Assembly: GCA_049997875.1 (NCBI GenBank)
Contig: JBEKRC010000001.1
Location: forward strand, 172,609 to 236,608
Direction: 5' to 3'
Source of the DNA: Minisyncoccia bacterium
GTDB lineage: Bacteria > Patescibacteriota > Minisyncoccia > UBA6257 > 2-01-FULL-56-20
Length of the DNA stretch: 64,000 bases
The notes beneath the pieces were generated by a model. That model was not told the origin of the DNA. It searched no databases and saw nothing but the letters and a program-made list of their open reading frames with translations. The translations under genes were made by a program, and so were the position numbers. Below, piece by piece: positions 11,780-59,850 of the stretch; within the stretch, counting starts at the first letter, position 1; each line of letters starts with the position of its first letter.

Positions 11780-11792
11780 CACAAGACGAAAC

Positions 11793-20532: not shown

Positions 20533-20537
20533 GCGCA

Positions 20538-20950: not shown

Positions 20951-20962
20951 AATGTCTAGTGT

Positions 20963-21670
20963 ATGATTGTCGGTAATTTTTTGTGGGGAAGTTTGGAAAG
21001 GAAGGCCCCATCTGCGCATCCCAATTTCTTTTGGTATATAATTCTTAATATCTCACATATGAAAGAATTGCTAGATACACCACAAAGAAACGAGAAGTCG
21101 CGGGCTTTCAAGGAATTGTATTCCAGGGTTTATGATGGTATGAGGCGTGAAAAGATTGAGCGTCTAAGGAAGCACAGAGAGCCGACAGAGTATGAAATTA
21201 CACAAAGGTGCTTTGAGGACGACCTTGAACCCCAGGTGAGACGTGCATTGGAGATACTTTCCCAAAAGGGGTACAGGACGACAGAAAGCGGCTTTTACAT
21301 CTATGGTGACAGGGAAAAAGATTCGCCATCGTTTCTGACCCAGTATATAACGGGATTTTTTGATGTTGGCGATGAAACGGAAAAGAAACTTAAGGAAATT
21401 GGCGTGAAGATCTCCAGAAGGGAAAATGATTATCCCAGGCTTAGCAATGCGGATTTTGACCCTCGTGAGTCTACTATCACGACTATAGAGTTTATGCTGC
21501 CCGAACCGGATATTGAAGCAATAACTTCTCAATGGGTGAAGATCGCCGAATTGCTACCGGTCGTTTCCGAAGATAAGCGCGTTGTTTGCGATAAGAAAAG
21601 GTTGGAGACCAATAGGATCATGCTGGAGGTAGAGGAACGTCGCGATAGGGATCGATATAGGATTTGGTAA
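20963..21670 (+). CDS. hypothetical protein (first gene of the tmRNA-adjacent island; possible ATG start at 21060)
   Basis: ORF track 235 aa with an internal ATG at 21060. AT-rich relative to the backbone. No domain recognised. Confidence 0.4.
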   Translation: MIVGNFLWGSLERKAPSAHPNFFWYIILNISHMKELLDTPQRNEKSRAFKELYSRVYDGMRREKIERLRKHREPTEYEITQRCFEDDLEPQVRRALEILSQKGYRTTESGFYIYGDREKDSPSFLTQYITGFFDVGDETEKKLKEIGVKISRRENDYPRLSNADFDPRESTITTIEFMLPEPDIEAITSQWVKIAELLPVVSEDKRVVCDKKRLETNRIMLEVEERRDRDRYRIW

Positions 21671-21694
21671 GAGGATCGTGCGCCCTACGTGCCA

Positions 21695-21765
21695 CTCACT
21701 GGCGCCCGATTTATAAGCGTCGGTAATTTTCTCAAGTATTCACCGACATCCGTTGTTAATCATTT
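21695..21765 (+). repeat. island repeat unit (family also at 22975-23050, 24765-24840, 26115-26180; partial copy right after the tmRNA 3' end)
   Basis: ggcgcccg...tcggtaattttctcaagtattcaccgacatccgttgttaatcatttgac. The copies at 22975 and 24765 end in gaccactcgtttccaca / gaccactcgtctcc, resembling the tmRNA 3' terminus ccgcccgtctccaca. Confidence 0.5.
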
Positions 21766-21867
21766 GACAGAAAACTACAACAGTGCTAAAACATACGCAG
21801 CCATAGAATATCGTGGCTTGACGCAAAATACTGCCGCAAAAGGAGCACGTTTATGTTTCCGAAATAC

Positions 21868-22215
21868 ATGGAACGGGGCTCGCATGGCCCTATCGTCCAG
21901 CTTGTGATTGTATTCTTGCTCGGTGCCGGATGCGGAAAGGGCCTCGTCGCAGACGGTATGTACGGTGACGTGGCCGTTGCGAACATGCAGGCGTGGCAGC
22001 GTGCCAATGGCATCAGCGATGATGGCGGGTGCGGTCCCGAAACCAGAAACTGCATGAAAGAACGCTGGGGCTTTGATCTCGAACTGGCGTCCCGGTACCT
22101 GCTAGCTGATGCCCCAACCGTCTTTTTCCAACCCGAAGGAGGATGGATTAGGTGGCACCCGGCCGAGGAATACGCGGACCCTCTCCAGTCGTCCCCCACG
22201 TCCCCCCTCGAGTAA
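21868..22215 (+). CDS. small lipoprotein with peptidoglycan-binding-like domain
   Basis: Signal peptide with lipobox LLGAGC. DGMYGDVAVANMQAWQRANGISDDGGCGPETRNCM resembles PG_binding_1. Confidence 0.45.
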   Translation: MERGSHGPIVQLVIVFLLGAGCGKGLVADGMYGDVAVANMQAWQRANGISDDGGCGPETRNCMKERWGFDLELASRYLLADAPTVFFQPEGGWIRWHPAEEYADPLQSSPTSPLE

Positions 22216-22449
22216 TGAGAGAACAGGCTGCGGACAATGCCGCATCGGATCAGGGCGGTAGCAGCAAAATACTACCGCCTCTCTCCTAAGATTATCCGCG
22301 TGGTGGGTACTTTTAGGCGAGAGGATGAATGTCATGAACATAGTGCACGTTGTGAATGTCGCAAGCCCGAACAAGCCTGCTTTTATATTTTTCTTATGTC
22401 ATCTATATTGTATGTAGCTAGCGAATGGATTTTCACCAAAGGAGGTTTT

Positions 22450-22851
22450 ATGGGTACTGCTACCGAACAGCCGCGACTGAAAGTTTCCTGGATTTCTGCA
22501 GTTTGCCTGATATTGCTGAGAAACCTGGCACGGGGAAAACGGTGCGGTCACCGGGATGTTGCGGAGGAATTGAAGCAATTGAAAGATGCCAATCTGCGGT
22601 TTTCCGATCTTGGACTGCGTGCGGCACCCGGCGGCTTCATGTCCGAAGATGCGCTCTTCTGGCTCTGGGAACTTTATCCGATGGGATACTACAAAGGCGA
22701 CCCTCATGCCACAGGGCTCATCTTGACCGACAATGGCAGAAAGTTCTGCGAGGAGATTGTGCGCGAGGAAGCCGAGAAGAATCCCGAGGAGTTTCAATCA
22801 GTGGCAAAAGCTCTTGAAGCGGACACTCTGGCGATATCTATCATCTCATAG
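22450..22851 (+). CDS. hypothetical protein (about 133 aa)
   Basis: An ATG preceded by aaaggagg, downstream of a copy of the tandem 8-mer motif. Confidence 0.4.
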   Translation: MGTATEQPRLKVSWISAVCLILLRNLARGKRCGHRDVAEELKQLKDANLRFSDLGLRAAPGGFMSEDALFWLWELYPMGYYKGDPHATGLILTDNGRKFCEEIVREEAEKNPEEFQSVAKALEADTLAISIIS

Positions 22852-22974
22852 AAGTTCTTCACCCATGTACATTGCGCCCGTCTTCTCGAAAGAAAGGATG
22901 GGCGCTTTTCGTACGCAGGAGGGGATTCAAACAAATGAACATCGTGAACGTAGTGTATGTCCTACGGGATGCTG

Positions 22975-23050
22975 ACCGGCGCCCGGTCCATCAGCCTCGG
23001 CAATTCTCTCAAATATTCCCCGAGTTCCAACGTTGACCACTCGTTTCCAC
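22975..23050 (+). repeat. island repeat unit copy (decayed tmRNA-3'-end-like att remnant)
   Basis: ggcgcccggtccatcagcctcggcaattctctcaaatattccccgagttccaacgttgaccactcgtttccaca. About 110 nt in total are shared with 24720-24840. Confidence 0.5.
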
Positions 23051-23203
23051 AGTGCTCGATATCGAACTCAGAAAGAGCTCGATTTTTGTTACATAATCTG
23101 TTTTTGTCGAGGCCTGGACGATCTTCAAGCGATTTTGAACGACCCTGAAGTTGCAAAAACTTTGTAAACTCAGGGTTGTGGGCGTGGTAATCGCAATGAT
23201 CTC

Positions 23204-23398
23204 TCACGCCCGTTTGTGGGACTTCTGCCACCGGACGTAGCAATCCTCGCCTTTCTCGTCGGGTATCCGATGGAAGAAGACATAGACGTACTTTCCGGGA
23301 AGTTTGAAGCGGATGCACTCTTCGCCAGGCAAAAGGTACTCATGGCAAGAGTAACACTGGAAGAGGAATCCATCCCTTTCAATCCATAGTTTGTCCAT
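23204..23398 (-). CDS. small Cys-rich hypothetical protein (64 aa)
   Basis: An aaggagg RBS directly precedes the ATG. CYSCHEY...EECIRF pattern. Confidence 0.4.
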   Translation of the reverse strand: MDKLWIERDGFLFQCYSCHEYLLPGEECIRFKLPGKYVYVFFHRIPDEKGEDCYVRWQKSHKRA

Positions 23399-24342
23399 AG
23401 GTGCCTCCTTCAGTTCGCGAGATTGTTTTTCTAGGGGATGAACGAGCCGGACTCCTCGACATCAGAGAGGCAAACTTGGCACAGATTTCCCCGATGGTCG
23501 AGGTTGAAGAAGAACCGATTAGACCCTCCCTGTCAAAGAGCTGGGTTGGAGCGACGGGTCGCGAGTCCCGCATCCTCCGATTTAAGAGATCGGTGCTCGC
23601 CTTGAGCTACGCCCCTCTCTGGGGCTGTCCCAGAGAGCGGAGTACCTTTTTCTTGACTTACTTCGTTTATAATATGCGAGGCACCTACCGTCAAGCACTC
23701 CCCGTAAGGGTTCAATAGCTTGTAACCAAAATGAACGTATGCACATTGTGAATGTCCTTGGAATGCCGAATGGTATCTTGTTTAACGGAAATATTAATAA
23801 AACTAAAAAGGGGAGCCAGAGACGATCACGTGAGTCGCTCCAACTCCCCTCTCTTGCTTCTTGCTGGCGCAGGCGGTTGCCTTATTTTGCGATGAGACCC
23901 GAATGGTTGTACCTAAGGCGGTCGATTTGAGTGCAATGATAAGGGTCTTCATCTTCCGGTTGGCCACCCAGGGTTGTCTGCTCCCCATGGGGAGCAAGAT
24001 GAATTGTGTACCCCCGGGGCCTTGCGAGATCTTCCTCTCGCTGTTTGAGTTGTCCCTCGGTCAACTTAGACTTTGTCTTCGCCACTGCGCACCTCGTGTT
24101 TGAGATTACTATGGTATTCACTACCACAGCCGAACTACTACCTTTTATCATTATAACACCTCTCTTATAAAAAAGCAAACATAATCTGCTACGGTTCAAC
24201 AGCTTGGAACCAAAATGAACGTATGCACGTTGTGAACGTCGCAGGGGGATAATCGGGAACAATCTGAAAAACAGAGAAGCTCCACAGCAATGAGAGCATG
24301 AGCTTCCCTGCGTGTGGAGCTGTTGTGTCGAAGGTCTGCCAG

Positions 24343-24627
24343 TTACCAGATGCTGTATGAATCTTCGGAAGGATGGCTTTCTGTAAGGCGGCGCCCTACC
24401 TGTTCCTGTACGCGGTCTTGCGCTTTGGCAAAGCGCTTTCGTGAATTGCCGGGGCGATGAGGCGGTTTTACGTGCCCGTCCTGTCCTGCGCGCTCAACAA
24501 GGTCGATTTGGCCAGCACGGAGGCCAAACTGGACGATAGCTCTGGCGAAGGCGTATTTCTTCCCATGCCGCCCTTTAACTTCCGTGATTTCCCTAGTGTC
24601 TCTTCTTCTGAACCTGAAAGTGGCCAT
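24343..24627 (-). CDS. small basic hypothetical protein (94 aa)
   Basis: An aaggagg RBS precedes the ATG at 24627. MATFRFRRRDTREITEVKGRHGKKYAFARAIVQFGL... Confidence 0.4.
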   Translation of the reverse strand: MATFRFRRRDTREITEVKGRHGKKYAFARAIVQFGLRAGQIDLVERAGQDGHVKPPHRPGNSRKRFAKAQDRVQEQVGRRLTESHPSEDSYSIW

Positions 24628-24764
24628 AGGCCCCTCCTTTGGATTCGCAAACATTTGCGAACACCTGATTAGGTTATAGATGTCGGATTGCGGTATGTCA
24701 AGCGTAAGTCTAACGGCGGCGAGTGAACATAGTGTGCATAGTGCAAATCCTATGGGATACTGAT

Positions 24765-24840
24765 CGGTACCCGGTTTAGCAGCTGTGGTAGTTTTCTCAA
24801 ATATTCCCCGAGTTCCAACGAAGACCACTCGTCTCCGCCG
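24765..24840 (+). repeat. island repeat unit copy (decayed tmRNA-3'-end-like att remnant)
   Basis: ggtacccggtttagcagctgtggtagttttctcaaatattccccgagttccaacgaagaccactcgtctcc. Confidence 0.5.
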
Positions 24841-25220
24841 ATTTCCGTTTTTGGTCGGTTGCGACCATCTCAAAGTGTTTTTTCCAAGCAACCACAAGGT
24901 TTTTATCGTGGAGGCTTAAGTTTGCCGCCATGAAAACAAGCAACCTCGGCACGGTGCCCCCTATTGATTTTTAGGCCGATTTGCTTTTAAATGCTCTCGG
25001 AAAGAGGTACCCATGGCGATGGACATTCTATGGTTGAACATGGAGGCAGAGGCATTCGGCTCCCCGCAAGCGCCACAACCAACATTTACGGGAACTCGCG
25101 GATCGACAGGCAGCCGCGAGTGTGCATATTACCCTCGGCACGCTTTATGCACGACGAGCGAATGAGCGCCCAAACAATAACAGCCCCATCTCTGGAGCTG
25201 TTTTTGTACACCTGTGCATC

Positions 25221-25589
25221 CTACCAATAAAGCAAAACGAGGCCGAGAATTAATGCGACCACCCCGCAGAACACGAGCACGCCGCCCTTATTGAATTTCC
25301 TGTAGAGAGAAACAGACGCATCGGGAAAGAAAAAGATGAAAGCCCCCTTTATGAGGGCCATCCACCCGATGATGGTGACGAGCAGCGGCAGGCCGGAGGT
25401 CCACATATTGTTAAGGACAACGATTACTGCGCCGATCAACACGGCAAGAAATCCCCACAGCCACAAGATCCCCTTGTTCTGAACCGACTCTTCCATGGCG
25501 GCGGCGGTAGCCTTGCTTCTGATGACTATTGATATGCCCACCAGTGCGAAGAAAATTCCCAGAATCTGAGCGATGACGATGGTATTCAT
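25221..25589 (-). CDS. small integral membrane protein (4 TM)
   Basis: 122 aa, four hydrophobic helices. Confidence 0.5.
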   Translation of the reverse strand: MNTIVIAQILGIFFALVGISIVIRSKATAAAMEESVQNKGILWLWGFLAVLIGAVIVVLNNMWTSGLPLLVTIIGWMALIKGAFIFFFPDASVSLYRKFNKGGVLVFCGVVALILGLVLLYW

Positions 25590-25747
25590 ATTTTAAACAT
25601 TAATTGTTAATTAATGACACCGGGTCGGCCTTTCTATAATCATAGTTCTGTTTGCATTAGAACTCCAATGTTGGCAAAAAGTCCCGTGCATCGTGAACGT
25701 ATGCACGTTGTTGAACCGGCAGAGAATCAAGAGGGCGGTTCCGGCCC

Positions 25748-26089
25748 TTACTTTTCTTTAGGGAGGTATGGTTTAAGTTCAGCCGGGGCCATCCCGATCT
25801 GCCGTAGTATTTTTTGTCGCACCGTCGCGACATACGATGGGGTTACCACGAGCGCCTCTGCGACCTCACCTATTGATTCTCCTTCAACGAATAATCTCCG
25901 AGCCACTTCTTCATAGTCCTTGCCCTTTAGGCGAGAGATCCGTTTCTCTATGAGCTTTCTCAACTCTTCCCTTTCCACGGCCTCGTCCGGCCCTAATGTC
26001 GAATCGGGAAGTCGGTGAGTTATTCTCTCCTCTCTGCCTTCAGGCCGCCCCTCAAAATTGCGAGGTTGTTCGGGGAATGATTCTTTCAT
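25748..26089 (-). CDS. stand-alone sigma-70 region 4 (HTH) domain protein
   Basis: LKGKDYEEVARRLFVEGESIGEVAEALVVTPSYVATVRQKILRQ matches sigma70_r4. No region 2 is present (113 aa). Confidence 0.5.
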   Translation of the reverse strand: MKESFPEQPRNFEGRPEGREERITHRLPDSTLGPDEAVEREELRKLIEKRISRLKGKDYEEVARRLFVEGESIGEVAEALVVTPSYVATVRQKILRQIGMAPAELKPYLPKEK

Positions 26090-26114
26090 TTGATTTGGAT
26101 TATAGCCTCATTCA

Positions 26115-26180
26115 AAAACTCAGGCAACTTCCTTAGATAATCCCGAGTTCCAATGTTGACCATTCGTTTTCACCCCAATG
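26115..26180 (+). repeat. partial island repeat unit; probable right boundary of the tmRNA island
   Basis: ataatcccgagttccaatgttgaccattcgttttcacc. Confidence 0.4.
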
Positions 26181-33063: not shown

Positions 33064-33125
33064 CCTGTCAAAGGTTCTTTAATAATTTTTTAATCTGCGT
33101 GCAAGGGGTTTTGGGCTCACGCACT

Positions 33126-39883: not shown

Positions 39884-40252
39884 TTAGGTGGCAAGATGAA
39901 TAAGGAAGTTGATGACGCTTACGATGAGCGTGGCGAGAATGAGAGCGGGAATGGTCTCAATACTAATGCTTCCCCGGAGAATGTCAATGTGATTTGCGAA
40001 AACGGGAAGGAGATACACAATAATCGCGTTCACGACGACGATGCCGATGCCGAGCGTAATCACAATGATGGGACCGAGGACGAGCGTGAGGATCGGCTTA
40101 AGGATGAAATTGAGCAGGGCGAGGATGAGCGCGATGATCGCGAGTTGCAGCCAGTTCGCGTTCAGGACGAAGCCGGGGATGTACATATTTGCAAGCCAGA
40201 GGGCGAGGGCGTTGCCGGCGATGATGAGGACAATGCGCGCGAGCCAGTGCAT
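39884..40252 (-). CDS. DUF360 / phage-holin-family-4-like membrane protein
   Basis: 122 aa, 3-4 TM helices, abutting secG. Confidence 0.55.
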   Translation of the reverse strand: MHWLARIVLIIAGNALALWLANMYIPGFVLNANWLQLAIIALILALLNFILKPILTLVLGPIIVITLGIGIVVVNAIIVYLLPVFANHIDILRGSISIETIPALILATLIVSVINFLIHLAT

Positions 40253-40274
40253 GGTCCTATTATATCATGCGTAA

Positions 40275-40420
40275 CAGCAAGGTGGGGGCACTTTTGAAGC
40301 GCCAGAATAAAATTGCTCCGGCGGCAATTTTTTCTTGCCGCTCAGCCCGCTCATCGAAAACACGCAAGAGTTTTCGAACCAAGCTGAGCGGGCCTGCGCG
40401 ACCCGCTTCAAAAGTGCCCC
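40275..40420. repeat. structured element E1: 27-bp perfect terminal inverted repeat enclosing an approximately 92-nt core with nested hairpins
   Basis: Arms cagcaaggtgggggcacttttgaagcg (40275-40301) and cgcttcaaaagtgcccccaccttgctg (40394-40420). The core contains aaattgc/gcaattt, cgctcagc/gctgagcg and cgaaaac/gttttcg stems. The core is homologous, in reverse orientation, to 44092-44195. Confidence 0.6.
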
Positions 40421-40567
40421 CACCTTGCTGTTGCCCTTGCTATAAATGAATCAGGTTTTTGTTCGCGCAGGCGATCGTTGACAATCATAATCGGACTGTG
40501 CTTCGCTACTTTGTAGTCCCCTTGGTGCGTGCACCTCTGGGGAAAATCCAACGAAAGGAATAAGAGC

Positions 40568-41212
40568 ATGCTCGATGTCCATGGATTGCAATTGATGGTC
40601 AGCAAGTCGTTACTTACGACAAAAGAACAGTGGGTTGCGCTGATTGATGCGCGGCTCACAATGGTCAAACCCTTCCTGAACTTCATGCCTACCTGTGAAT
40701 TGCAGCATGTGGGCTGCGTGTATGACGGCAGATGCCTCTCAAACCTCAACTACCAGAAGTTTATAGCAGAGGGCAGTCCTGGCGTCCACATCAAGGTGGA
40801 ACCGAAGCCAGCCCTCCTCTCGACCGATGGCATTTGGGAACGAGGGCTGACAGCAGACAGCTCGTGGCTCCCCCAGGAAAGCTGTGTGGTTTTGGACAAA
40901 TTGGTGCTCTGGGGCCTCGTTCGGAATGGAACGTGGCTGGGAGCGTGGGCAAACTACAGCATCACGCATTATTCCTCTTGGGCAGACCAAGGGCCACAGT
41001 CATTCGCCGATCTTGGGTTTCTCGCGATACGCCCCACCACGGTACGGGAGTTGCTTGAGAAAGAGAGAATACCTCCCGCACGGATTTATAACATGCTGAC
41101 TTCCGAATTCCACAAGTGGTTTCGGGGATACAAAGAAAGATTTGAGCGTGCAAGTGATCTCGCGAAGATTATGGAAGTGGAAGATTTCTTTGTGAGCAAC
41201 CGAGATCGTTAA
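40568..41212 (+). CDS. hypothetical protein (about 214 aa; ATG at 40568 with an aagga RBS)
   Basis: ORF only. No domain recognised. Confidence 0.45.
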   Translation: MLDVHGLQLMVSKSLLTTKEQWVALIDARLTMVKPFLNFMPTCELQHVGCVYDGRCLSNLNYQKFIAEGSPGVHIKVEPKPALLSTDGIWERGLTADSSWLPQESCVVLDKLVLWGLVRNGTWLGAWANYSITHYSSWADQGPQSFADLGFLAIRPTTVRELLEKERIPPARIYNMLTSEFHKWFRGYKERFERASDLAKIMEVEDFFVSNRDR

Positions 41213-41266
41213 CCAACCCGCCTACACTAGGGCAGAAGCCCGTCTGTTGTATGGCGGGTTTTCTGG

Positions 41267-42802
41267 TTACGTGATCTGGTCCAGCAGGCTCCTTCCGGTC
41301 ATCTCGGCTGGCTTTTCTATGCCCATTGCTTCCAAGAGGGTGGGGGCGACGTCGGCGAGGGAGCCGAGTGTTTCAACCTCAAGCGTGTCGGCGTTGATGA
41401 ATTTTCTGCCGCGGTATTGGTCGGCGATGAAATAAAGAGGCACGGGATTTGACGCGTGCTGGCTCTCGGGGAGCCCCGTCACAGGACTCACCATTTCCTC
41501 AATGTGGCCGTGATCGCTCGTGATCGCGAGGGTAGTATCGGGATTTATCGCGACCTTGAGGATGCGGCCGATCTCTCGGTCAATAACCCGTACGGCAGCG
41601 AGCGCCGCGTTGTAATCGGCGGTGTGGCCGATGGTGTCGGGATTGGCGTAATTAACGAGGATAAAGTCAAATGTTTTGTTTTGAATCGCCTCAAGGAGCC
41701 GGTCGGTGATCGCCCCCGCCATCATTTCCGGATGTTCCTCGGGGTGGAGGCTGGAGTTTGAAGGGACGAGCGTTCGGTATTCTCCCTTGAACGGCGGCTC
41801 GCGGAGGCCGTTGAAGAAATAGGTAACGTGCGCATATTTGTAGGTTTCGGCAAGGCGAAGCTGGGCCATGCCCAGGTCGGAGATCACTTTTCCAATGGGA
41901 TTTTCCACGATGTCGGCGGGGTAGATGACGGGGATGTTGAACGCGTCATCGTAGTGGCTCATCGTTGCAACGTACAGGTTTTGGAACTTGAGCGTCGGGA
42001 ATTTGTCAAAATCTTTCAATATGAACGACGACGCGAGCTGCCGGATGCTATCCTCGCGGTAATTGAAGAAAATGACGGCGTCGCCATCCTGAATTTTCTT
42101 GTCTTCTCCAAAGCGCATCGGCGGGAGATATTCCTCCGTGCCGCTTTCTTGGTAGGTAGCCTTAATGATGGGCGCAGGATCATCCACTATCCTCCCTGCC
42201 TGGCCCGTCACAGTGTCATAGGCGGTTTCCGTGAGCCGCCAGGTTCCGTTCCTGTCCATGGCATAGTATCGGCCAATGAGGGAGGCAAGATATTCGCGCG
42301 GCAGTTCGCCGAGGAAGCTTTCCACGGTGTGCAGCGGGCTGTCCTTCCCGTCGGCGAAGAGGTGCAGATTGATCTTCGGTACGCGTTCTGCCTGCGCCAT
42401 TTTGATGAGCGCCTTCAGATGATCAAGCGAAGCATGCACGTTGGCCTTCGTGAGAAGTCCCAGGAAATTTATCGCGGCGTTATGTTCCCGTGCGTGAGCG
42501 CAGGCCGCCTTGAGCACCGGATTTTGGAAAAAGGTCCCGTCCCGGATTGCCATCATGATCTTCGGATAATACTGATAAAGGACCTTGCCTGCGCCGAGCG
42601 TGAGATGCCCAACCTCGCTGTTGCCGACCTCGCCCCATGGGAGTCCGATCGCGATCCCCGACGCCTGCAAGCTCGTCATCGGATAATTGTTCCTTAGCCA
42701 CTCAAACACCGGCGGTTTCACGACGTAGATCGGATTCGATTCGCTGTTGCGGCCGATGCCCCAGCCGTCAAGGACAATAAGGACGGTCGTTTTCTTTGCC
42801 AT
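41267..42802 (-). CDS. gpmI: 2,3-bisphosphoglycerate-independent phosphoglycerate mutase
   Basis: MAKKTTVLIVLDGWGIG...; metalloenzyme-domain motifs including SDHGN/SDHGH. Confidence 0.85.
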   Translation of the reverse strand: MAKKTTVLIVLDGWGIGRNSESNPIYVVKPPVFEWLRNNYPMTSLQASGIAIGLPWGEVGNSEVGHLTLGAGKVLYQYYPKIMMAIRDGTFFQNPVLKAACAHAREHNAAINFLGLLTKANVHASLDHLKALIKMAQAERVPKINLHLFADGKDSPLHTVESFLGELPREYLASLIGRYYAMDRNGTWRLTETAYDTVTGQAGRIVDDPAPIIKATYQESGTEEYLPPMRFGEDKKIQDGDAVIFFNYREDSIRQLASSFILKDFDKFPTLKFQNLYVATMSHYDDAFNIPVIYPADIVENPIGKVISDLGMAQLRLAETYKYAHVTYFFNGLREPPFKGEYRTLVPSNSSLHPEEHPEMMAGAITDRLLEAIQNKTFDFILVNYANPDTIGHTADYNAALAAVRVIDREIGRILKVAINPDTTLAITSDHGHIEEMVSPVTGLPESQHASNPVPLYFIADQYRGRKFINADTLEVETLGSLADVAPTLLEAMGIEKPAEMTGRSLLDQIT

Positions 42803-43035
42803 GGGTTCATTATACCGCGCGCGCGCGGCTGCGCGAACGATGTATGAAAACACAAAAGACCCGTTGCTCGGGTCTTTTGCTGGTCCAACGCGAAGCCGGA
42901 ACCCTCCCCACCAAGAAGGGAAACATAAATTCTGGATCGCTTGGGATGACCTCGCAAGATGCAAGGGTCGCCTCGCCAGGATCCTCGCTCGCCTGGGATT
43001 CCGTCCCTAAGTCGAGTTTTGCTCAACCCCGCAAT

Positions 43036-43078
43036 TGCACGGCCCCAAAAAGGCCCTGCAAGTCGCGGGGCCTTTTCG
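43036..43078 (-). terminator. terminator hairpin plus U-run downstream of the methyltransferase gene
   Basis: The reverse complement reads aaaaacgaaaaggccccgcgacttgcagggccttttt. Confidence 0.45.
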
Positions 43079-43081
43079 TTT

Positions 43082-43891
43082 TTAACCCCGATTACAATTT
43101 TCACAGACAAGAAATCCTCTCCTTACATTGTCGACAAAGAAACCGTTCTGGGCAATCTCCTTCTCTATCTCTGCCCTCACCATACTCTCGATTTTTTTCC
43201 AATCAGCATCTGATGGAACCGGCTCGTACATGTCCCGAACCGAGTTAAAAGCATGAAGATACGGTTCAGGCTTTTCAAGCTGGATTTGCCCCTCGTAAAC
43301 AAATCTATCGATAATCTTGAAAGTGTCTTTGAGTTGCTCTTCTGCGTTTTCCAAGTTAAACGACGAGCTGAACTGTGGAGATGCTGTTTTGCCAATCAAG
43401 TTTTCTACCGTTTTTTTGAATGCTTTGTTTTTCGGCTTATTCAGCTGACTTCCGGTCGCAATCAAAACTTTGCCGTTATCCTTCAAGGCGCGTTTCCACT
43501 CCTTTAGAGTTTTCTGGATATCGGGCATGTGATAGAGCATAAAGAAAGCAAGAATCACATCAAATGATTTATCAGGAAACGGGAGGTCATCGGCTGAGCC
43601 GACAATGAATTCTATCTGTCTGCCAAGAGATTCTTGAAATATATTTTCGTTGATCTCTAGGCCAACTAACTTCCCAAAATGGCCGGCCTGTCGCAAGTTT
43701 ACGAGGACACTGCCATCGCCGCAGCCGACCTCCAAAATATTTTCGTCCCTTTTCAGCCCCAAATGTTCAATTCCCACCTGATGTATGTCTATTTTGGGAA
43801 CTGCAAATTCGTACAAATCCCAGCGGGCGCGAAACTTGTCCGCGGAGGCGTATTGGTTGAATGACAGATATTTTATGTCCTTCAGCTTCAT
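43082..43891 (-). CDS. class I SAM-dependent methyltransferase
   Basis: ILEVGCGDGSVLVNL motif I and following Rossmann-fold motifs. Confidence 0.75.
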   Translation of the reverse strand: MKLKDIKYLSFNQYASADKFRARWDLYEFAVPKIDIHQVGIEHLGLKRDENILEVGCGDGSVLVNLRQAGHFGKLVGLEINENIFQESLGRQIEFIVGSADDLPFPDKSFDVILAFFMLYHMPDIQKTLKEWKRALKDNGKVLIATGSQLNKPKNKAFKKTVENLIGKTASPQFSSSFNLENAEEQLKDTFKIIDRFVYEGQIQLEKPEPYLHAFNSVRDMYEPVPSDADWKKIESMVRAEIEKEIAQNGFFVDNVRRGFLVCENCNRG

Positions 43892-44063
43892 TTTATTAGA
43901 ATCTATTTTAACACGTTGGAATATTCCATAACCGGTTCAACTCTGCCCGTCTCTTGGGGTTTTTGATAAAAAATACAAAAGTGGTGTCCTACAAACATTG
44001 ATTTTACTGGAGTCCCAACGTTATATGGACCGTGGAAGTGCGGGGAGTCAAACCCTGTGGATT

Positions 44064-44223
44064 CCCCCATTGCCGCAGGTACTCCAAGGCGGATCGCGCA
44101 GGCCTGCTCGGCTAGGTCCGAAATGCCATTGTGTGCATTTCGGCGAGCGGGCCGAGCGGCAAGAAAAAATCCCCGCAGGAGGGATTTTATTCTGGCGCTT
44201 TGGAGTACCTGCGGCAATGGGGG
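44064..44223. repeat. structured element E2: 28-bp terminal inverted repeat (one G-U on the + strand) enclosing a core homologous to E1 in opposite orientation
   Basis: Arms cccccattgccgcaggtactccaaggcg and cgctttggagtacctgcggcaatggggg. Core stems are gctcggc/gccgagc, ccgaaatgc/gcatttcgg and aaatccc/gggattt, and each has compensatory changes relative to E1. Confidence 0.6.
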
Positions 44224-44311
44224 ACAGGGGCGAGTTGACAGGTATTCCATCGCTGCGTTACGATGAAGTTATTAAAAGTCCTTAAAATGAAACATTTCAA
44301 TAACATTAACT

Positions 44312-45808
44312 ATGAACGCACTTATACCGCTCGTTGCGGCGGTTTTTGGCATTGCAGTAGGGTACTTCGCGCGGAGATACTGGGCAGCTAAACGCTTCGG
44401 GGATGTTGAGGAAAGAGTAAAAAAGGATCTTGCTGAGGCGGAAGCCAAAGCGAAAGAGATCGTCGTAGAGGCAAAAGATAAGGCCGCCTCGCTTTTGGTT
44501 GACATCAAAAACGACGAGAAGGAGCGCAGGAAGGAAATTGAAGCGTTGGAGAGCCGCCTTCTCAAGAAAGAGGAAACGTTTGAGAAACGATCGGAGGAAC
44601 TTTCCGCCGAAGAAGGGGAACTCCACGTCCGCGAAGAGAAATTAAAAACGGGGGAAACCGAGGTCCAATCGCAGTTGGAAAAGATTGGGAAACTTTCCGC
44701 GGAGGAGGCGAAAGAGGAAATCATGCGCCGCGTGAAGGAGGATCGGGCGCAGGATCTTGCGCAGCTTGTCCAGAAGATGGACCGCGAAGGGCGGGACGAA
44801 GTTGAGAAGAAAACGGCGGAAATCATAACGACCGCGCTCCAGCGCTATGCGCGCTCGCACGTTTCGGAGATTACGACCACGCTGCTCCCCTTGAGCGACG
44901 AAGATCTGAAGGGAAAGATCATCGGCCGCGAGGGGAGGAATATCAGGGCACTGGAGCGCGCGACGGGGGTGGAATTCATCATTGATGAGGCGCCAGAGGC
45001 GATCATCATTTCTTCATTTGATCCCTATCGCCGCGAAGTGGCGCGGCTTGCGCTGGAGCGCTTGATCAAAGACGGCCGGATCCAGCCCGCAAAGATTGAG
45101 GAGAAAGTGGAGGAGGCGAAGGCGGAACTCGCGAAGCGCACGCAGGAGATCGGCGAAGCGGCGGCGCAAGACCTCGGCATTTTTGATTTGCCGAAGGAGA
45201 TTTTGCAGATGGTTGGCCGACTGCACTTCCGGGCAAGCTTCGGGCAGAACGTACTCACGCATTCCGTTGAGATGGCGTACATTTCGGAGATGATGGCGCG
45301 CGAGCTCGGGTTGAATGCGGAGGTTGCGAAGAAAGGGGCTTTTCTCCACGACATCGGGAAGGCAATTGACCAGGAGGTGGAAGGGACTCATGTTGACCTG
45401 GGTATGAAACTCCTCAAAAAATATAACGTTGATGAGCGCGTCATTGAGGCGATGCAGTCCCACCACGATGATTATCCCTATGCGCGGCCGGAAGCGTACG
45501 TCGTAGCCGCGGCGGACGTGCTCTCGGCGGCGCGGCCCGGCGCGCGGCGCGGGACGCTTGAGAATTACGTGAAGCGCCTCGCCGATCTTGAGAAGATTGC
45601 CCTGGAGTTTCAGGGCGTGAAGCAAGCTTATGCCATCTCCGCGGGCCGCGAACTCCGCGTGTTCGTGGTTCCGGAAAAGGTGGATGACTTCCGTGCACTT
45701 GAGCTTGCGCGGGAGATTGCGAATCGGATACAATCTGAGTTACAATATCCGGGAGAGATCAAGGTGAACGTCATCCGGGAAATACGGGCCGTGGAATACG
45801 CCCGTTAG
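44312..45808 (+). CDS. rny: ribonuclease Y
   Basis: N-terminal TM helix, coiled-coil, KH domain (GREGRNIRALE), and HD domain (HDIGKA...). Confidence 0.85.
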   Translation: MNALIPLVAAVFGIAVGYFARRYWAAKRFGDVEERVKKDLAEAEAKAKEIVVEAKDKAASLLVDIKNDEKERRKEIEALESRLLKKEETFEKRSEELSAEEGELHVREEKLKTGETEVQSQLEKIGKLSAEEAKEEIMRRVKEDRAQDLAQLVQKMDREGRDEVEKKTAEIITTALQRYARSHVSEITTTLLPLSDEDLKGKIIGREGRNIRALERATGVEFIIDEAPEAIIISSFDPYRREVARLALERLIKDGRIQPAKIEEKVEEAKAELAKRTQEIGEAAAQDLGIFDLPKEILQMVGRLHFRASFGQNVLTHSVEMAYISEMMARELGLNAEVAKKGAFLHDIGKAIDQEVEGTHVDLGMKLLKKYNVDERVIEAMQSHHDDYPYARPEAYVVAAADVLSAARPGARRGTLENYVKRLADLEKIALEFQGVKQAYAISAGRELRVFVVPEKVDDFRALELAREIANRIQSELQYPGEIKVNVIREIRAVEYAR

Positions 45809-48900: not shown

Positions 48901-49849
48901 CGATTCGCTTCGAAATAAAAACCGTGGTTCATCAGCTCCGGCGGCAATACCGCTGGGTCGAATTCCTCGGTCAGTTTTCCGTCGGAGCCCATGGCAAAAG
49001 CGCGGTAGCCCAGCCCCGCAAGAAGATCGAAAACCGCTTTCGGCTTATGGCCAAAACGTTCGGTGTGCCATTCTTGGATCTCAAATACAAGGCGAGGATG
49101 GAATCGTTCAAGGGTCTTCTGGCCCCCGAGGAGCATATGAAACTCTCCTCCTTCAATGTCCGCCTTTATAAAATCAAGGCGCTTGATATGGTGCTCATCA
49201 GCGAAGTCGTCGAGGGTCGTCATGGTGACAGGAATCCTCTTGCCATAATAGTTATATCGCGAAGCGCCTCCGCTCCCGCGAAATTCCTGGGAGACAAAGA
49301 AAGAAGTTTCGCCTTTTTTATCTCCAAGCGCCTGGTTTATCAATGCCGCATTGGAGATGTGGTTCAGCTTTATATTTTCCTCGAGTTCCTTGAACGTAGA
49401 GTAGATCGGCTCAAAGGCAAACACCTTTCCGCCCTCTCCGACATAGCGCGCGAAGTGGGTCGTATACCAGCCAAAGTTGGCTCCTGCGTCCAACACGGTC
49501 CAATCTTTTTAATAATGCCTCTCATGAGGTTCGTTTCTTCTTCCTCGAAAGAGCCAGTGTAGAATAGTGCGCTTGTGGTTGATTGGCCCGGCCGCACGAA
49601 AAACTTCATACCGTTTTTCATCACGGCAATGATCGCGTGGGGTGAAATTTCAATGCGTTCAAGGTTCGCCATGCCGACGACGGCCATAAGGTCGCAGGCG
49701 TTCACGAGGCGCTTTTCCATCAGGGAGGTTATTGCGCCATTTTTCGTGGTCAAGCGAGCGAGGTTCTCGTAACGCCTTTTCAAGAAATTCGCAAGGCGTT
49801 CATCTTTTGCGACTATTTTTTTAAGCCAGAGAGGAACTTTCATAGTCAT
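48897..49849 (-). pseudogene. FkbM-family methyltransferase split over two overlapping frames (frameshift near 49440-49500)
   Basis: The 48897-49496 product begins at the FkbM core (LDAGANFGWYTTHF...). The 49370-49909 product supplies the N-terminal region in another frame. It could be a sequencing error or a genuine pseudogene. Confidence 0.45.
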
Positions 49850-55067: not shown

Positions 55068-57017
55068 TTGCTTGCCATGAAAACGCCGTACCATCCGAAA
55101 CCGACTCGCTGTCCTATTTGCAAAAGAGGGACAGACTTTGCTTTTATGGAAAATTACAAAGATCAAAACGAAAAGCAATGGTCTCGCTATGAATGTTGCT
55201 CCTGCGCGGTGCAATTTTGGCTGCCGCTCGTCGCGCCCGAGGGAGATGCCTATGAGGAGGACGTTGCATATCAAGGAAAAAGCGAGGTGCTCTCCAAAAA
55301 AAATGCGCATGCAATCGTCCGCGGGTATTGGAACGCAAGACAGTTTCTTTCGGACTTCTCCAAAAAGGGCGCCGCTCCCAAGAAACTTTTGGATGTAGGC
55401 TGCGGGACGGGTGAATTCGCTTTTGTGGCGGGCGAACTTGGGTATCAAGTGGAGGGAGTGGACTTCAATGCGGGCGCCGTGGCGCTCGCCCGCGCGCGCT
55501 TCGGCCTCAGGGACGTTTTTGTGGCTGACGTTTACGCTTTTTTAGAAGACAAAAGAGAAGCCTATGACGTTATTACCGCTTTTGAGGTTATTGAGCATTT
55601 TCCCGATCCCGGGCGTTTTTTGGAACTGGCGCGCGGCGCTCTCACGGTCGGCGGCGTGCTTGTCCTTTCCACTCCGAACCGCGATCGCTACTGGGGGCGC
55701 ATCAATGCACGGAGCGAGTCATGGGATTTTCCTTACCAACATCTTTCGCGATGGAGCGTGCGCTCGCTCCGGAACTTCGCCGAGGACCGTGGCTTCGGTG
55801 CGGTCCGTATGAGAGAAGAACTGCCGACCGATTGGTTCGTGGAAAGGTTGCGGAGCGCGGCTGGCATGTTTTTGGGAAAGCCGCGGGCAGACGACCGTCG
55901 GAGCGCTTCCGAACGGACGCGGAGCCGCCTCGGGTTTTCAAGATACGAGCGCCTGAAGCGTGCGGTCCTCGCGGTTTGTGAGGTGCCCGCCGCAATCATG
56001 CATTTCATCTTCCGCTTCAAAGGGGTCCATCTGTACGGCGTTTTCATAAAGGATAGAACGGCGGATTACGGCCCGGTTGTCCGATGGCTTCGGAGCCCTG
56101 CACGCAAGCCAATCGTCCTTTCCATGAGCCGGTGGATCGGGCCCCTGCGCGTGCGCCTCCTCGCGTTCAAAGGATATTTCGCCGGCATATTCTCCCGCTA
56201 TGACCTGTACGCCTATCTGTTCAAAGGGGCGAAGAGCAGGACAAAAGAACAACGCTTGCTTCTTGCGTATTACCTTCAACGGGAAGCGACACTCGCGGCC
56301 ATCAAGCAGTTCGTCCGCGCCGATGGTTCTGTGGAATTCTGCGGCCGACCATTTTTTCCTTGCGAAGGGAATTACTGGGAAATGATGATGCTGTTTGACA
56401 GCACCGTGACAAAGGATCCCTATCGCGCGGAGCAGTTCTTAAAAGAGGATTCGGTAGTAATAGACGCTGGAGCGAACACGGGCGTTTTCACCGTCCTCGC
56501 TGCGACGCTCGCCCCCAGAGGGAGGGTGTATGCTTTCGAGCCGATACAAAGGACCTTCGCGGCGCTTATGCGGAATACCGAACGGTTGCGAAAAGAAAAC
56601 AGGGTGGAATGCCATCAAGAGTTCCTTGCAGAAAAAGATGGAGAGAAAGTCATGCGTGCGGCGCTTTCCGGATTCACGGGCTCTCTTGCCGAAGATAGTC
56701 CCTTCGTGCCGCACCAGGACACTTTTGATTTTGATATTGTGGAAAGAGTAAGAACGATCCGCATTGATGATTTTGTGAAGGAAAAACACATAAAACGCCT
56801 TGATTTCATTAAGATCGACACGGAGGGATATGAGCGGTTTGTGCTCCAAGGCGCGCACGAGACCATCCGCAGATTCAAGCCCGTCATTGCCATGTCTGCC
56901 TATCACAATCCCGACGACAAGGAAGTGCTGCTGGCGTTCGTAAAAAGCGCGTGTCCGGAGTATGTTGTGGAACTCTCGCAGGGCACCGAGGAGGATTTCA
57001 TTTGCTACGTCCCTTAG
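55068..57017 (+). CDS. fusion protein: zinc ribbon plus class I SAM methyltransferase plus C-terminal FkbM-family methyltransferase
   Basis: N-terminal CPICK...CCSC and LDVGCGTGEFAF. The C-terminal half has VIDAGANTGVFTVLAA and the paralog-conserved ending AMSAYHNPDDKEVL...EEDFICYVP. Confidence 0.7.
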   Translation: MLAMKTPYHPKPTRCPICKRGTDFAFMENYKDQNEKQWSRYECCSCAVQFWLPLVAPEGDAYEEDVAYQGKSEVLSKKNAHAIVRGYWNARQFLSDFSKKGAAPKKLLDVGCGTGEFAFVAGELGYQVEGVDFNAGAVALARARFGLRDVFVADVYAFLEDKREAYDVITAFEVIEHFPDPGRFLELARGALTVGGVLVLSTPNRDRYWGRINARSESWDFPYQHLSRWSVRSLRNFAEDRGFGAVRMREELPTDWFVERLRSAAGMFLGKPRADDRRSASERTRSRLGFSRYERLKRAVLAVCEVPAAIMHFIFRFKGVHLYGVFIKDRTADYGPVVRWLRSPARKPIVLSMSRWIGPLRVRLLAFKGYFAGIFSRYDLYAYLFKGAKSRTKEQRLLLAYYLQREATLAAIKQFVRADGSVEFCGRPFFPCEGNYWEMMMLFDSTVTKDPYRAEQFLKEDSVVIDAGANTGVFTVLAATLAPRGRVYAFEPIQRTFAALMRNTERLRKENRVECHQEFLAEKDGEKVMRAALSGFTGSLAEDSPFVPHQDTFDFDIVERVRTIRIDDFVKEKHIKRLDFIKIDTEGYERFVLQGAHETIRRFKPVIAMSAYHNPDDKEVLLAFVKSACPEYVVELSQGTEEDFICYVP

Positions 57018-57039
57018 AGTACCATTTAACTATAGACGA

Positions 57040-57298
57040 GGTTGATTTGACGCACGTTCGCCGGTACGAATTCGCAAGGCAATACGTTTCCGGGAAGAGC
57101 GTGCTGGATGTGGGGGGGGGCGCCGACGGCGTCGGGGCGGCGATCCTTGCCGAAGTTGCGGCGAAGGAACTGACGTTCCCGCAATTCTTTTGTCTCATGA
57201 ACACTTATTTCAGCCGTCCGGAATTCTTCGGACAAATTTTCTACAAGGAACCAATGTGGAAAACAAAAGTGCTTAATCTTATGAAACAGATGGCATGA
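57040..57298 (+). pseudogene. 5' fragment of a SAM-methyltransferase gene
   Basis: YEFARQYVSGKSVLDVGGGADGVGAAILAE (motif I) and then it ends. The 3' flank of the preceding gene is duplicated at 58555-58625. Confidence 0.4.
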
Positions 57299-57424
57299 CG
57301 CGCTTACCCTCCGTATTACCATGAATGGGAAAATCGCTGTCCAGATGATGCAGCGTCTTGCTTCCGCTGCTGACCTTGTGAATGTCGTGGGTAAGAAAAA
57401 TTTTGAGCGTGCCGAAATTTTTCC

Positions 57425-57830
57425 TCAGTAGATCCCCACGGGCAAGCCCGTGGGGATCTCAGAGGTCAAGCTTCGCCTGACCTGAATCCTGGTCCTGCTG
57501 CCAGCGGACGTAGTTGAGAATCTTAGTTTCGTCCAGGCCAACGGTGGACACGAAGTAGTCGGGCGACCAAACGATGTTTTCTTTCCAGTATACGTTCTCC
57601 AGCCAGGCAAACTGTTTCCTCAGGATGCTTGCGGTCTGGGCTTTGATGCGGTCGATGACCTCACTCACGGCATACTTCGGCGGGATCGACAGGCAATTCC
57701 TTTGACAAAACGGCGCTCTCAACGACGTCTTCCCTAAGTGATTTGATTTCGGTATCATTACCAAGAAAGGCATCGATCGCGCTTCGGCCAAGGAGATAGG
57801 CGGCTGTGCCGATCAAGTTAACCGAACGCG
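57425..57830 (-). mobile_element. tnpA: IS200/IS605-family remnant: frameshifted tnpA (Y1 transposase C-terminal half) plus subterminal 12-bp palindrome
   Basis: The 57459-57791 product contains IPPKYAVSEVIDRIKAQTASILRKQF..LENVYWKENIVWSPDYFVSTVG.DETKILNYVRWQ (IS200 TnpA C-terminus), but the N-terminal HuH region is missing or out of frame. Hairpin gatccccacggg-caag-cccgtggggatc at 57431-57458. Confidence 0.5.
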
Positions 57831-57833
57831 TCC

Positions 57834-58574
57834 ATGAGAATAAAGAACGCTCCATTATATGTAAAAACCGTTGTCCGCGATTTGCGACATCCGCTTCTCT
57901 TTTTGCGATCAATGCCATGGGATGAGTCGCTCAAAAAAATTACGGAATCCGCCTCATTGTTCGGGGATATTTCCGTATTAGACCAATATTGTGCGAGGGA
58001 GTTCATAAAAAAAGGGGACGTGGTGATAGAAGGCGGCGCAAACATGGGCGTTTTTTCCTGTCTTGCGGCGTCGCTTGGTGCAACGGTTTATGCTTTCGAA
58101 CCCTATAAAAAGGCGTTCTTTATCTTGTCAAAAAAAAATCAAAGATTTTCCTCCATCATCCCGGTTCATTCTGCTCTTGGCGATAGGAATGGGACTGCCA
58201 TGTTGAAGGAGGGCGGAGAAAGACATTTCGGTTGCTCCACAATGACTGATACCAGCTTGAATCCCTTGGGGTTTTCGTGGGAACCAGAATGCCAAGTTTC
58301 CGAAGTGCCGATAACAACTGTTGATGATTTCGTGAATAAGAATGGAATACGGAAAGTGGACTTTGTGAAGCTGGATATCGAGGGATACGAGGCGCAAACT
58401 CTACGAGGCGCGTTGAAAACGATAAAGAGAGACAGGCCCGTGATTGCCATGTCCGCCTACCATCACCCAGAAGACAAGAAAGTCCTCCCCGAGATCCTCC
58501 ATTCAGTCGTCCCGGACTATGTCTGCCGGTTGGAAAAAAGGGCGGAGGACGATTTCATTTGCTACGTCCCTTAG
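57834..58574 (+). CDS. FkbM-family methyltransferase
   Basis: VIEGGANMGVFSCLAA ... AMSAYHHPEDKKVLPEILHSVVPDYVCRLEKRAEDDFICYVP. Confidence 0.7.
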   Translation: MRIKNAPLYVKTVVRDLRHPLLFLRSMPWDESLKKITESASLFGDISVLDQYCAREFIKKGDVVIEGGANMGVFSCLAASLGATVYAFEPYKKAFFILSKKNQRFSSIIPVHSALGDRNGTAMLKEGGERHFGCSTMTDTSLNPLGFSWEPECQVSEVPITTVDDFVNKNGIRKVDFVKLDIEGYEAQTLRGALKTIKRDRPVIAMSAYHHPEDKKVLPEILHSVVPDYVCRLEKRAEDDFICYVP

Positions 58575-58639
58575 AGTATAGTATCTTTTAACTATGGACG
58601 AAGGCGGCACCTGCTCCGGAATGCCAGTGGAAAAATCAT

Positions 58640-58720
58640 CAACGCCGCTCGCTCCGGAATTTTGCTGGGGATCGCGGCTTCGGTGCGATCCGTACGGGAC
58701 AGCAATTAGTTCAGATCGCG
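58640..58720 (+). pseudogene. duplicated internal fragment of the 55068-57017 methyltransferase gene
   Basis: ccgctcgctccggaattttgctggggatcgcggcttcggtgcgatccgtacggga parallels 55758-55825 (SLRNFAEDRGFGAVRMRE). Confidence 0.4.
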
Positions 58721-59659: not shown

Positions 59660-59850
59660 GAAGAGGAGTGGCATACTGAACGTTTCGGCTACAAACCGCA
59701 GGCCATTTTCGATCTCCTCTCTGGACTTGGGTATCGCGCTTTTGCAATTGCTACCGATGGCAGATTAATCGAAGAGTTCGACGTAAAAGTGCTCCCGCCG
59801 GGAATGACATACAGCTATTATTTCAAGCACGCAGAAAGCCCATCGCGCTA
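59660..59850 (+). pseudogene. 3' fragment of an FkbM-family methyltransferase paralog
   Basis: Translates to EEWHTERFGYKPQAIFDLLSGLGYRAFAIATDGRLIEEFDVKVLPPGM, matching the C-terminus of the 48897-49496 product (QEWHTERFGHKPKAVFDLLAGLGYRAFAMGSDGKLTEEFDPAVLPPEL). Confidence 0.45.

Follow-up and report, generated by a model that had tools for sequence, protein, structure and literature searches.

A lineage-restricted family of branched intergenic elements closed by copy-specific long helices in Minisyncoccia

A 64,000-nucleotide stretch of a Minisyncoccia genome (contig JBEKRC010000001.1, positions 172,609 to 236,608; here, the window) carries two copies, E1 and E2, of an intergenic structured element, which are two subtypes of a lineage-restricted family. 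The family is real and reproducible, is absent from the libraries searched, and has an unusual architecture: the conserved unit is a three-way junction of ~105 nt together with a semi-conserved stem of 10 to 16 bp, and it marks spots where close relatives gain or lose single genes. The reading that we favor, tentatively and at somewhat less than even odds, is that of a non-autonomous mobile or cassette-boundary element that is recognized in folded form and requires a long helix of any sequence. Patescibacteria have tiny genomes, few recognized mobile elements, and almost no described non-coding RNAs. If the element is a recombination or boundary site, it would explain the swapping of small gene cassettes in these streamlined genomes; if it is an RNA, it would be a stable RNA that is new, confined to this lineage, and unusually strict in its need for a long, perfect stem. 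A conserved core enclosed by a perfect stem whose sequence is peculiar to each copy makes a distinctive signature, and a covariance model allows it to be sought.

The core of E1 (40273 to 40432) is on the minus strand, and that of E2 (44063 to 44224) is on the plus strand. Both lie in divergent intergenic regions, where a sequence-only reading of the window had placed them: E1 is flanked by a Phage_holin_4_2/SecG operon (39884 to 40252, minus strand) and an ORFan (40568 to 41212, plus strand), and E2 is flanked by a class I methyltransferase gene (43082 to 43891, minus strand) and the RNase Y gene, rny (44312 to 45808, plus strand). In E1, which represents subtype A, the 5' arm (40432 to 40404) and the 3' arm (40301 to 40273) enclose the core (40403 to 40302) and form 29 of 29 Watson-Crick pairs. 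In E2, which represents subtype B, the core (44092 to 44195) is enclosed by arms at 44063 to 44091 and 44196 to 44224, whose 29 pairs include one G-T. The sequence-only reading had reported perfect closing repeats of 27 to 28 bp; the pairing within each copy holds, but the arms are slightly longer, at 29 bp each. Aligned to E2, the reverse complement of E1 is 79% identical over the whole alignment and 81% identical over the ~105-nt core, in keeping with the ~80% interior identity claimed earlier, and the two blocks quoted in its support, GAGCGGGCnGAGCGGCAAGAAAAAAT and ATTTTATTCTGGCGCTT, are intact. The predicted folding energies are -94.4 kcal/mol for E1 (z = -9.5) and -113.2 kcal/mol for E2 (z = -10.6), and the z-scores against shuffled sequences range from -9.5 to -12.8 for the two elements on either strand. 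The covariance model matches E1 with 139.6 bits and E2 with 137.7 bits; no third copy was found in the 64 kb of the window, including when the model was run without filters.

Additional copies were sought with one pattern over the hairpin formed by an A-run and a T-run (P4, see below) in species-representative genomes and JGI metagenomes. This search yielded six more full copies and two decayed ones (L005 and L023), so that the full copies number eight, spread over five or more genomes or contigs. The six are denoted by their loci: L002, which adjoins tRNA-Glu; L014, which adjoins tRNA-Trp; L003; L004; L008; and L020, which is the same as L012. A further match, L007, is identical in sequence to E2, and the remaining pattern matches are ordinary terminators or coding sequence. 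One 899-kb chromosome, OY970175.1, carries L003, L004, and the degenerate L005. The known range of the family so far is one narrow clade of Minisyncoccia/Patescibacteria. The RNase Y encoded in the window is 100% identical to a protein of a Minisyncoccia (Patescibacteria) metagenome-assembled genome, and the closest relatives by RNase Y are two ~0.89-Mb chromosomes, at 94% amino acid identity. The cores of E1 and L003 (subtype A) are 92% identical, as are those of E2 and L004 and of E2 and L002 (subtype B); L008 and L020 are 85% identical, and identity across subtypes is 72 to 84%. The earlier statement that the element matches no known RNA class is borne out by Rfam 15: a scan of the window at the gathering thresholds returned only the transfer-messenger RNA (tmRNA) and one tRNA, and a scan of E1 and E2 at E ≤ 10 returned noise (12 to 22 bits, against thresholds of 35 to 90). 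A phage or plasmid origin was considered and rejected: two scans of viral contigs with the core patterns gave one chance match, and blastn searches of phage and plasmid records gave no match.

RNAalifold and a hand-specified structure agree on the consensus fold, a three-way junction closed by helix P1. The first branch (44095 to 44158 in E2, plus strand; pair counts are over the eight copies) starts with the 3-bp P1a (CGC at 44095 to 44097 paired with GCG at 44156 to 44158), followed by a GCA/GA internal loop and by the 10-bp P2 (44101 to 44110 with 44144 to 44153), where 5 of the 10 pairs have changed on both sides. Beyond P2 are a conserved 7-nt bulge with the consensus GCUUGGU (GCTAGGT in E2, 44111 to 44117) and the variable hairpin P3 (44118 to 44143), which is replaced by a wholly different hairpin in L008 and L020. 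The second branch, P4 (44159 to 44196), is a long A/T-rich hairpin, composed in E2 of GCaAGAAAAAATCCC and GGGATTTTaTTCTgGC with the loop CGCAGGA. Its upper four pairs covary and its loop, CGCNGGA, is conserved; the lower P4 stem is invariant partly because all additional copies were sought with a single P4 pattern. Over the eight copies, 98.3% of the cells show standard pairing and 20 of the 46 pairs have changed on both sides. Controls in which the pairing was slid gave 36 to 51% pairing and one to five such pairs, and none of 500 shuffles matched the observed values of pairing and covariation. Selection on intrastrand pairing, which had been proposed from the two window copies, is thus real and strong. 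Two of the three compensatory helices on which that proposal was based are as described, but the first (gctcAgc/gcTgagc) was drawn in the wrong register: GGCCCGCTCA pairs with TGAGCGGGCC, the proximal repeat. Six further copies support this register, in which the same A/G position forms A-T in three copies and G-C in five. A small open reading frame (ORF) within the element was rejected because the frames are broken between copies (P3 differs by 2 nt) and no peptide is conserved.

The closing arms behave differently from the core. Each true copy has its own arms, with perfect runs of 30 bp in L002 and 34 bp in L014, imperfect helices in L003 (25 bp with one G-T) and L020 (28 bp with one C-A), and shorter ones in L004 (~22 bp) and L008 (19 bp with three non-Watson-Crick pairs); across copies, the closing inverted repeats span 12 to 34 bp. 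The outer arms are statistically unrelated between copies (p ≤ 0.05 in 2 of 55 pairs, about the chance expectation), as had been claimed, although the inner 10 to 16 bp are semi-conserved (TTTTGRAGmG) and common to some copies. For example, L008 and L020 have the core and 16 bp of the arm in common at different loci, and E1 and L002 have 12 bp in common; E1 and L003, in contrast, differ at half of their inner-arm pairs. Complementarity past the arms is clear only in E1 (22 of 40 positions, ungapped) and is absent in most copies. Several origins of the arms were tried and rejected. Alignment statistics gave no significant support to arms that are homologous but diverged; a derivation from the resident flank was not significant either when the arms were aligned, anchored and locally, to empty sites in five relatives; and the idea that the arms are guides or spacers failed because no third copy of any arm occurs in the 379 kb examined. 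The arms of E1 and E2 have no exact counterpart in viral contigs.

E1 and E2 are 3.8 kb apart in opposite orientations; therefore, orientation follows the neighboring genes and not replication. In the five head-to-tail contexts, the element separates the 3' end of a gene or tRNA from the start of the next gene, and its E2-plus orientation is antisense to both neighbors in all five. The upstream neighbors are tRNA-Glu (L002), tRNA-Trp (L014), and genes for a histidine kinase (L003), a CAP-domain protein (L008), and GreA (L020). The genes downstream of the copies, those in the window included, are unrelated, namely, the ORFan, the methyltransferase, pyrG, atpB, an aminoacyl-tRNA synthetase gene, a hydrolase gene, and two hypothetical genes. 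Among the eight copies, no promoter was found at a fixed distance upstream of the element, and no U-tract follows the closing helix on either strand. The suggested cis-regulatory role finds no support here: the neighbors are functionally unrelated, and the element lies upstream of their promoters and not in a leader, the same two observations on which a riboswitch or cis-regulatory leader was rejected. In several copies, the arm extends into the resident gene, covering the last 3 nt of tRNA-Glu in L002, the last 7 nt of greA in L020, and the last 8 nt of tRNA-Trp, with 3 of a further 5, in L014. The probability that an 8-nt extension into tRNA-Trp arose by chance is ~10^-5; therefore, the opposite arm was made complementary to the resident sequence, at least there. 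We infer that a mutational or selective force drives the helix toward length and perfection.

Comparison with relatives places both window copies at the edges of insertions. In L021, L022, and L038, the gene order is SBP-SecG-holin-iPGM/rny with short spacers and without E1, E2, and the genes adjacent to them. Relative to this order, the window contains two extra blocks, one (~40270 to 41266) with E1, a promoter, the ORFan, and a terminator, and the other (~42823 to 44234) with two hairpins, the methyltransferase gene, and E2. Each element occupies the extreme edge of its own lineage-specific block. The resident holin/secG promoter (40253 to 40272, minus strand; extended -10 element TGATATAAT, ~6 nt before the ATG) abuts the 3' arm of E1, with the extended -10 box 5 nt from the arm, and forms the left edge of the first block; it is also present in L021 and L022, which have neither E1 nor the ORFan. 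Likewise, the resident rny promoter found in the promoter scan (44235 to 44264, plus strand; TTGACA-18-TACGAT), whose -35 box is 10 nt past the 3' arm of E2, forms the right edge of the second block and is conserved in L021 and L022, two relatives without E2 and the methyltransferase gene. A further empty site is the spacer between the histidine kinase gene and pyrG, which measures 274 nt with the element in L003, 49 nt in L034, and 28 nt in L035; neither L003 arm is present in the L034 and L035 spacers. Accessory single genes differ among relatives at these same hot spots. A link between the ORFan and the element was considered and rejected, as the sole ORFan homologue (36% identity) has no element nearby.

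The RNase J-SBP, holin-iPGM, and iPGM-rny spacers, compared in the window, L021, L022, L023, L038, and L039, hold a different single accessory gene in each relative (LAGLIDADG, Peptidase_S51, methyltransferases, PHA_gran_rgn, Inositol_P, and CPT). These three spacers are hot spots of one-gene gain and loss in genomes that are otherwise collinear.

Copies also decay and change locus. L005 is a degenerate full copy, and L023 is a P4-only remnant beside a hot-spot accessory gene. With low confidence, a possible decayed 3' half (P4 plus inner arm) can be recognized in the window at 42905 to 42955 (plus strand), at the far end of the methyltransferase block; it aligns to the 3' halves of the elements and to the L023 and L005 remnants, but the covariance model gives no match there. 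No further copies were found near rny or pyrG in six relatives. At the four-fold degenerate sites of rny, OY970175.1 shows 83% identity to the window genome and its sibling shows 67%, with saturation at 33%; at 83% identity, neutral sequence should still align. Yet cores of the same subtype that are 92% identical lie at different loci with unrelated outer arms, and thus the arms, or the association of core and arms, change faster than neutral sequence. This turnover cannot be accounted for by an RNA gene that is inherited vertically and drifts slowly by compensatory change. At a shorter scale, 19 contigs carry the rny of the window, and in the nine loci read, the elements are identical in sequence and present in one orientation.

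Long hairpins without a core also occur. A core-less hairpin with a 28-bp stem and an 18-nt loop (7982 to 8055, plus strand) begins in the last bases of a tRNA gene (7912 to 7983), the same position that the element occupies after tRNA-Glu in L002 and tRNA-Trp in L014. The orthologous tRNA in L035 is followed by a hairpin of unrelated sequence with 30 of 30 perfect pairs (L035, 11578 to 11649), the inner stem of which (TTCGGGAAGAG) resembles the inner-arm consensus of the element; in L034, there is none. A stop codon and the tmRNA promoter flank another long hairpin (20529 to 20598). The stems of these core-less hairpins are 21 to 30 bp long and perfect or near-perfect. Long, perfect, and fast-changing hairpins are therefore a general feature of these genomes, and the element occupies the tips of such hairpins.

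A second unit, here termed the T-module, links the family to tRNA genes. In the window, the T-module (8064 to 8209, plus strand), downstream of the core-less hairpin at 7982 to 8055, has a closing stem and four hairpins, one of them covarying, and ends in a copy of the 3' end of the adjacent tRNA; its fold has a z-score of -4.7, and it has no match in Rfam. The 3' two-thirds are largely identical to L002 3960 to 4105 (plus strand), the flank of the L002 element, so that the module occurs at two different tRNAs in two genomes. In L002, the interval bounded by tRNA-Glu and by a displaced duplicate of the final 16 nt of this tRNA holds both the element and the T-module. Such a displaced tRNA 3' end is the signature of integration into a tRNA gene. 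The last hairpin of the T-module and the base of the element core have a motif in common, GCGCA-GGCC...GGCC-GA-GC, a pattern that is unique in the window (none expected by chance), and in L002, the two occurrences face each other, inverted, across a small inserted unit. At the tRNA of the window (7912 to 7983), fragments resembling its 3' end (GAGCAGYGAARYTCCTCACG) occur at 8188 to 8210, 9284 to 9306, and 10501 to 10523 and bound three small islets: one of 204 nt, one with an SDH-protease gene, and one with ORFs of 75 and 204 amino acids. This arrangement looks like serial integration at the tRNA. No integrase was found between 6.5 and 13.5 kb.

Under the mobile or cassette-boundary reading, the element would form the boundary of small integrating gene cassettes or would itself be a non-autonomous mobile element. 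A trans-acting protein would recognize it in a folded, single-stranded form, with the core presented at the tip of a long, near-perfect helix that would be required for its length and perfection and not for a terminal-repeat sequence. The helix could be kept or extended by selection, by hairpin-templated correction, or by both, which would be why every copy is closed by its own inverted repeat. Mobility, the trans-acting protein, the choice between DNA and RNA as the folded form, and the origin of the arms are all points that we infer. We favor this reading because of the covarying fold, the turnover, the empty sites, the position at insertion edges, the remnants, the shared ends, the tRNA contexts with their duplicated tRNA end, the motif shared with the T-module, and the orientation of the window copies; of the options raised by the sequence-only reading, a mobile structured element is the one that fits the locus turnover, the decayed remnants, and the insertion-edge position. 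Integrative elements that target tRNA genes offer a parallel, as the L002 copy and the core-less hairpin of the window both have an intact tRNA on one side and, on the other, a displaced duplicate of its 3' end; unlike those elements, the unit here is 200 to 350 bp, encodes nothing, and has no integrase nearby, and most copies are away from tRNA genes. More speculatively, and with a probability we would place well below that of mobility in general, the family could be a new kind of miniature integrative element or cassette boundary of candidate-phyla-radiation bacteria, in which a branched-fold site with conserved unpaired bases builds or demands a long hairpin of arbitrary local sequence and a related module mediates insertion at tRNA 3' ends. 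Such a site would be specified by its structure, with a conservation pattern inverse to that of the integron attC site.

Several observations weigh against a mobile or boundary element. No transposase, integrase, or reverse transcriptase was found beside any copy, and direct target-site duplications at the arm ends are absent in all eight copies. Conservation is lowest at the outermost bases, contrary to what defines a classical terminal inverted repeat, and with two to three copies per ~0.9-Mb genome that are ~80% identical within a genome, there is no sign of a recent burst. In E1, L002, and L014, the closing helix runs uninterrupted from the outer to the inner arm, which simple insertion into a hairpin loop would not produce; neither arm can be traced to the sequence of the relatives' empty sites. 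Finally, the bases of the junction and the bulge are invariant while the stems covary, which also fits a functional RNA. REP sequences and REPINs are likewise intergenic hairpin repeats kept by compensatory change, and IS1397 and ISKpn1 are a precedent for mobile DNA that inserts in the loop of a resident palindrome. However, REPINs are conserved in sequence, abundant, and dependent on RAYT, and loop insertion would break the stem, whereas no break is seen in E1, L002, or L014.

The strongest competitor, which we regard as unlikely, is a family of small stable RNAs. In this scenario, a precursor would be transcribed from any upstream promoter or by read-through, the closing helix would be a processing stalk of the RNase III type, and the mature RNA, consisting of the three-way junction and the inner ~10 bp, would bind a protein via the GCUUGGU bulge and the internal loop. 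As would be expected of a generic structured non-coding RNA, covariation supports a conserved fold, and it is strong and accompanied by invariant unpaired bases. The conservation of the stem decays outward, as if only the inner stem were part of the mature RNA, and the variable distance to promoters and the lack of a U-tract after the helix are expected of a processed transcript. RNase III needs a helix of roughly 20 bp; the stems of 25 to 34 bp exceed this need. The likeness to the RNase III stalks of rRNA precursors is close, in that a fast-evolving long helix, constrained in pairing and not in sequence, flanks a conserved RNA; unlike those stalks, the copies of the element are non-syntenic. 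The step from structure to RNA is, moreover, not established. G-U pairs make up only ~2% of paired cells, and a hand count over all helices in the E2-plus orientation gives ~8 G-U against ~4 A-C, numbers that define no strand. Because wobble pairs are scarce, the fold is nearly equal on both strands; the E2-plus orientation has the better folding energy in seven of the eight copies, a point in favor of a stable RNA. The evidence on strand is weak, and covariation would arise equally for a fold of single-stranded DNA and for RNA. A stable RNA is further at odds with the lack of a conserved promoter that travels with the unit and with the antisense placement of the E2-plus orientation relative to both neighbors in all five head-to-tail contexts. 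Loci are non-syntenic between close relatives and copies decay, a turnover that this scenario leaves unexplained.

An improbable explanation is that the element is an elaborated form of the long hairpins that this lineage places between genes. It would act on transcripts, by terminating them, by insulation, or as a site of processing between cistrons, and so uncouple the upstream gene from the next gene's promoter, with the core as an accessory. The core-less hairpins share this niche, lying after the tRNA at 7912 to 7983, before the tmRNA promoter, and after the L035 tRNA, and all five head-to-tail copies lie between the 3' end of a gene or tRNA and the next promoter. Furthermore, the arms overlap the last 3 to 8 nt of the upstream gene, and the P4 strand with the longer U-run is co-directional with it. 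Conversely, the combination of a G+C-rich stem with an immediate U-tract that defines intrinsic terminators is missing, as no U-tract follows the closing helix in either direction. The internal hairpin P4, which the sequence-only reading had called terminator-like, is a weak candidate, with only three to four G-C pairs and no call in the consensus-based terminator scan. E1 and E2 lie between divergent promoters, where there is nothing to terminate. The invariant bulge and the conserved three-way junction would be needless in a terminator, and the turnover is again unexplained.

Membership in a known repeat family, such as classical MITEs (miniature inverted-repeat transposable elements), with the differences between stems being coincidental, is very unlikely. 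The size, the intergenic position, the inverted-repeat ends, the decayed copies, and the semi-conserved inner arms of 10 to 16 bp are all MITE-like. Correia/NEMIS and ERIC elements, in particular, are also intergenic, ~100 to 160 bp long, and formed of one long hairpin, with decayed copies; when transcribed, the hairpins of these known elements are substrates of RNase III or RNase E and can carry promoter or terminator activity. However, the terminal repeats of those MITEs are conserved, their targets are duplicated, and their similar copies number tens to hundreds, whereas the termini of the present family are its least conserved part, no duplication flanks it, and each genome has two to three diverged copies of a covarying three-way junction. 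The outer arms are unrelated, so that conserved terminal inverted repeats are missing, and there are neither flanking direct repeats nor near-identical copies: the window has two copies at 81% identity in 64 kb, and OY970175.1 has three by the strict pattern. Substitutions concentrate in compensatory pairs and are not random. Hence, the alternative under which the two copies are fragments of a MITE-like repeat, raised in the sequence-only reading as what would undo its proposal, is largely refuted.

Barely credible is a retron-like msr/msd RNA, an invertible promoter switch, or an integron attC site, despite copy-specific repeats reminiscent of the retron a1/a2 repeats (a feature that is not specific to retrons), repeats around ~100 bp as in invertons, and a folded site at a cassette edge as in attC: no reverse transcriptase, invertase, or integron integrase lies beside any of the eight copies, and the nine loci read in the population of the window carry the elements in one orientation. 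The neighbors (holin/SecG, RNase Y, tRNAs, a histidine kinase, a CAP-domain protein, and GreA) include no reverse transcriptase downstream, and in the nine loci read, neither the second orientation nor a nearby invertase was seen. The comparison with attC is instructive. Both would be folded single-strand sites read by structure at a cassette edge, with conserved unpaired bases, but attC sites have conserved outer R boxes (R''/R'), a variable center, and co-oriented arrays beside intI. The present elements show the reverse pattern, with ends that vary from copy to copy around a conserved center; the RYYYAAC/GTTRRRY ends are absent, E1 and E2 are opposed, and the regions scanned contain no recognizable integrase. 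In agreement with the initial judgment that attC sites, retron msr/msd, and riboswitches do not fit, the element fails to show what defines each of the three.

Other features of the window touch the promoters and repeats of this lineage. The holin and iPGM genes have a TATAAT box only ~6 to 7 nt before the ATG (within 40253 to 40264 and 42803 to 42820, respectively), and relatives have corresponding boxes (L021, 9896 to 9910; L022, 8332 to 8345), that of L021 overlapping the ATG. This position implies leaderless or near-leaderless mRNAs in the lineage. A 68-nt promoter-like repeat (TTGATTAAAAAATCATTAAAT..TCTTTGAC..GCTATGAT) occurs at 9318 to 9385 and 11723 to 11790 with 88% identity, and a partial inverted copy lies at 33067 to 33095. 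Downstream of the tmRNA gene (20636 to 20951), the region from 21659 to 26173 contains families of direct repeats with units of 113, 48, and 32 nt spaced 0.5 to 1.8 kb apart, which suggests paralogous genes or cassettes in tandem. A 136-nt inverted repeat, 71% complementary, connects 48938 to 49073 with 59666 to 59801, ~10.6 kb apart. Finally, direct repeats of 54 to 86 nt occur between neighboring genes at 55761 to 58699, probably paralogous genes for sugar-modifying enzymes or methyltransferases.

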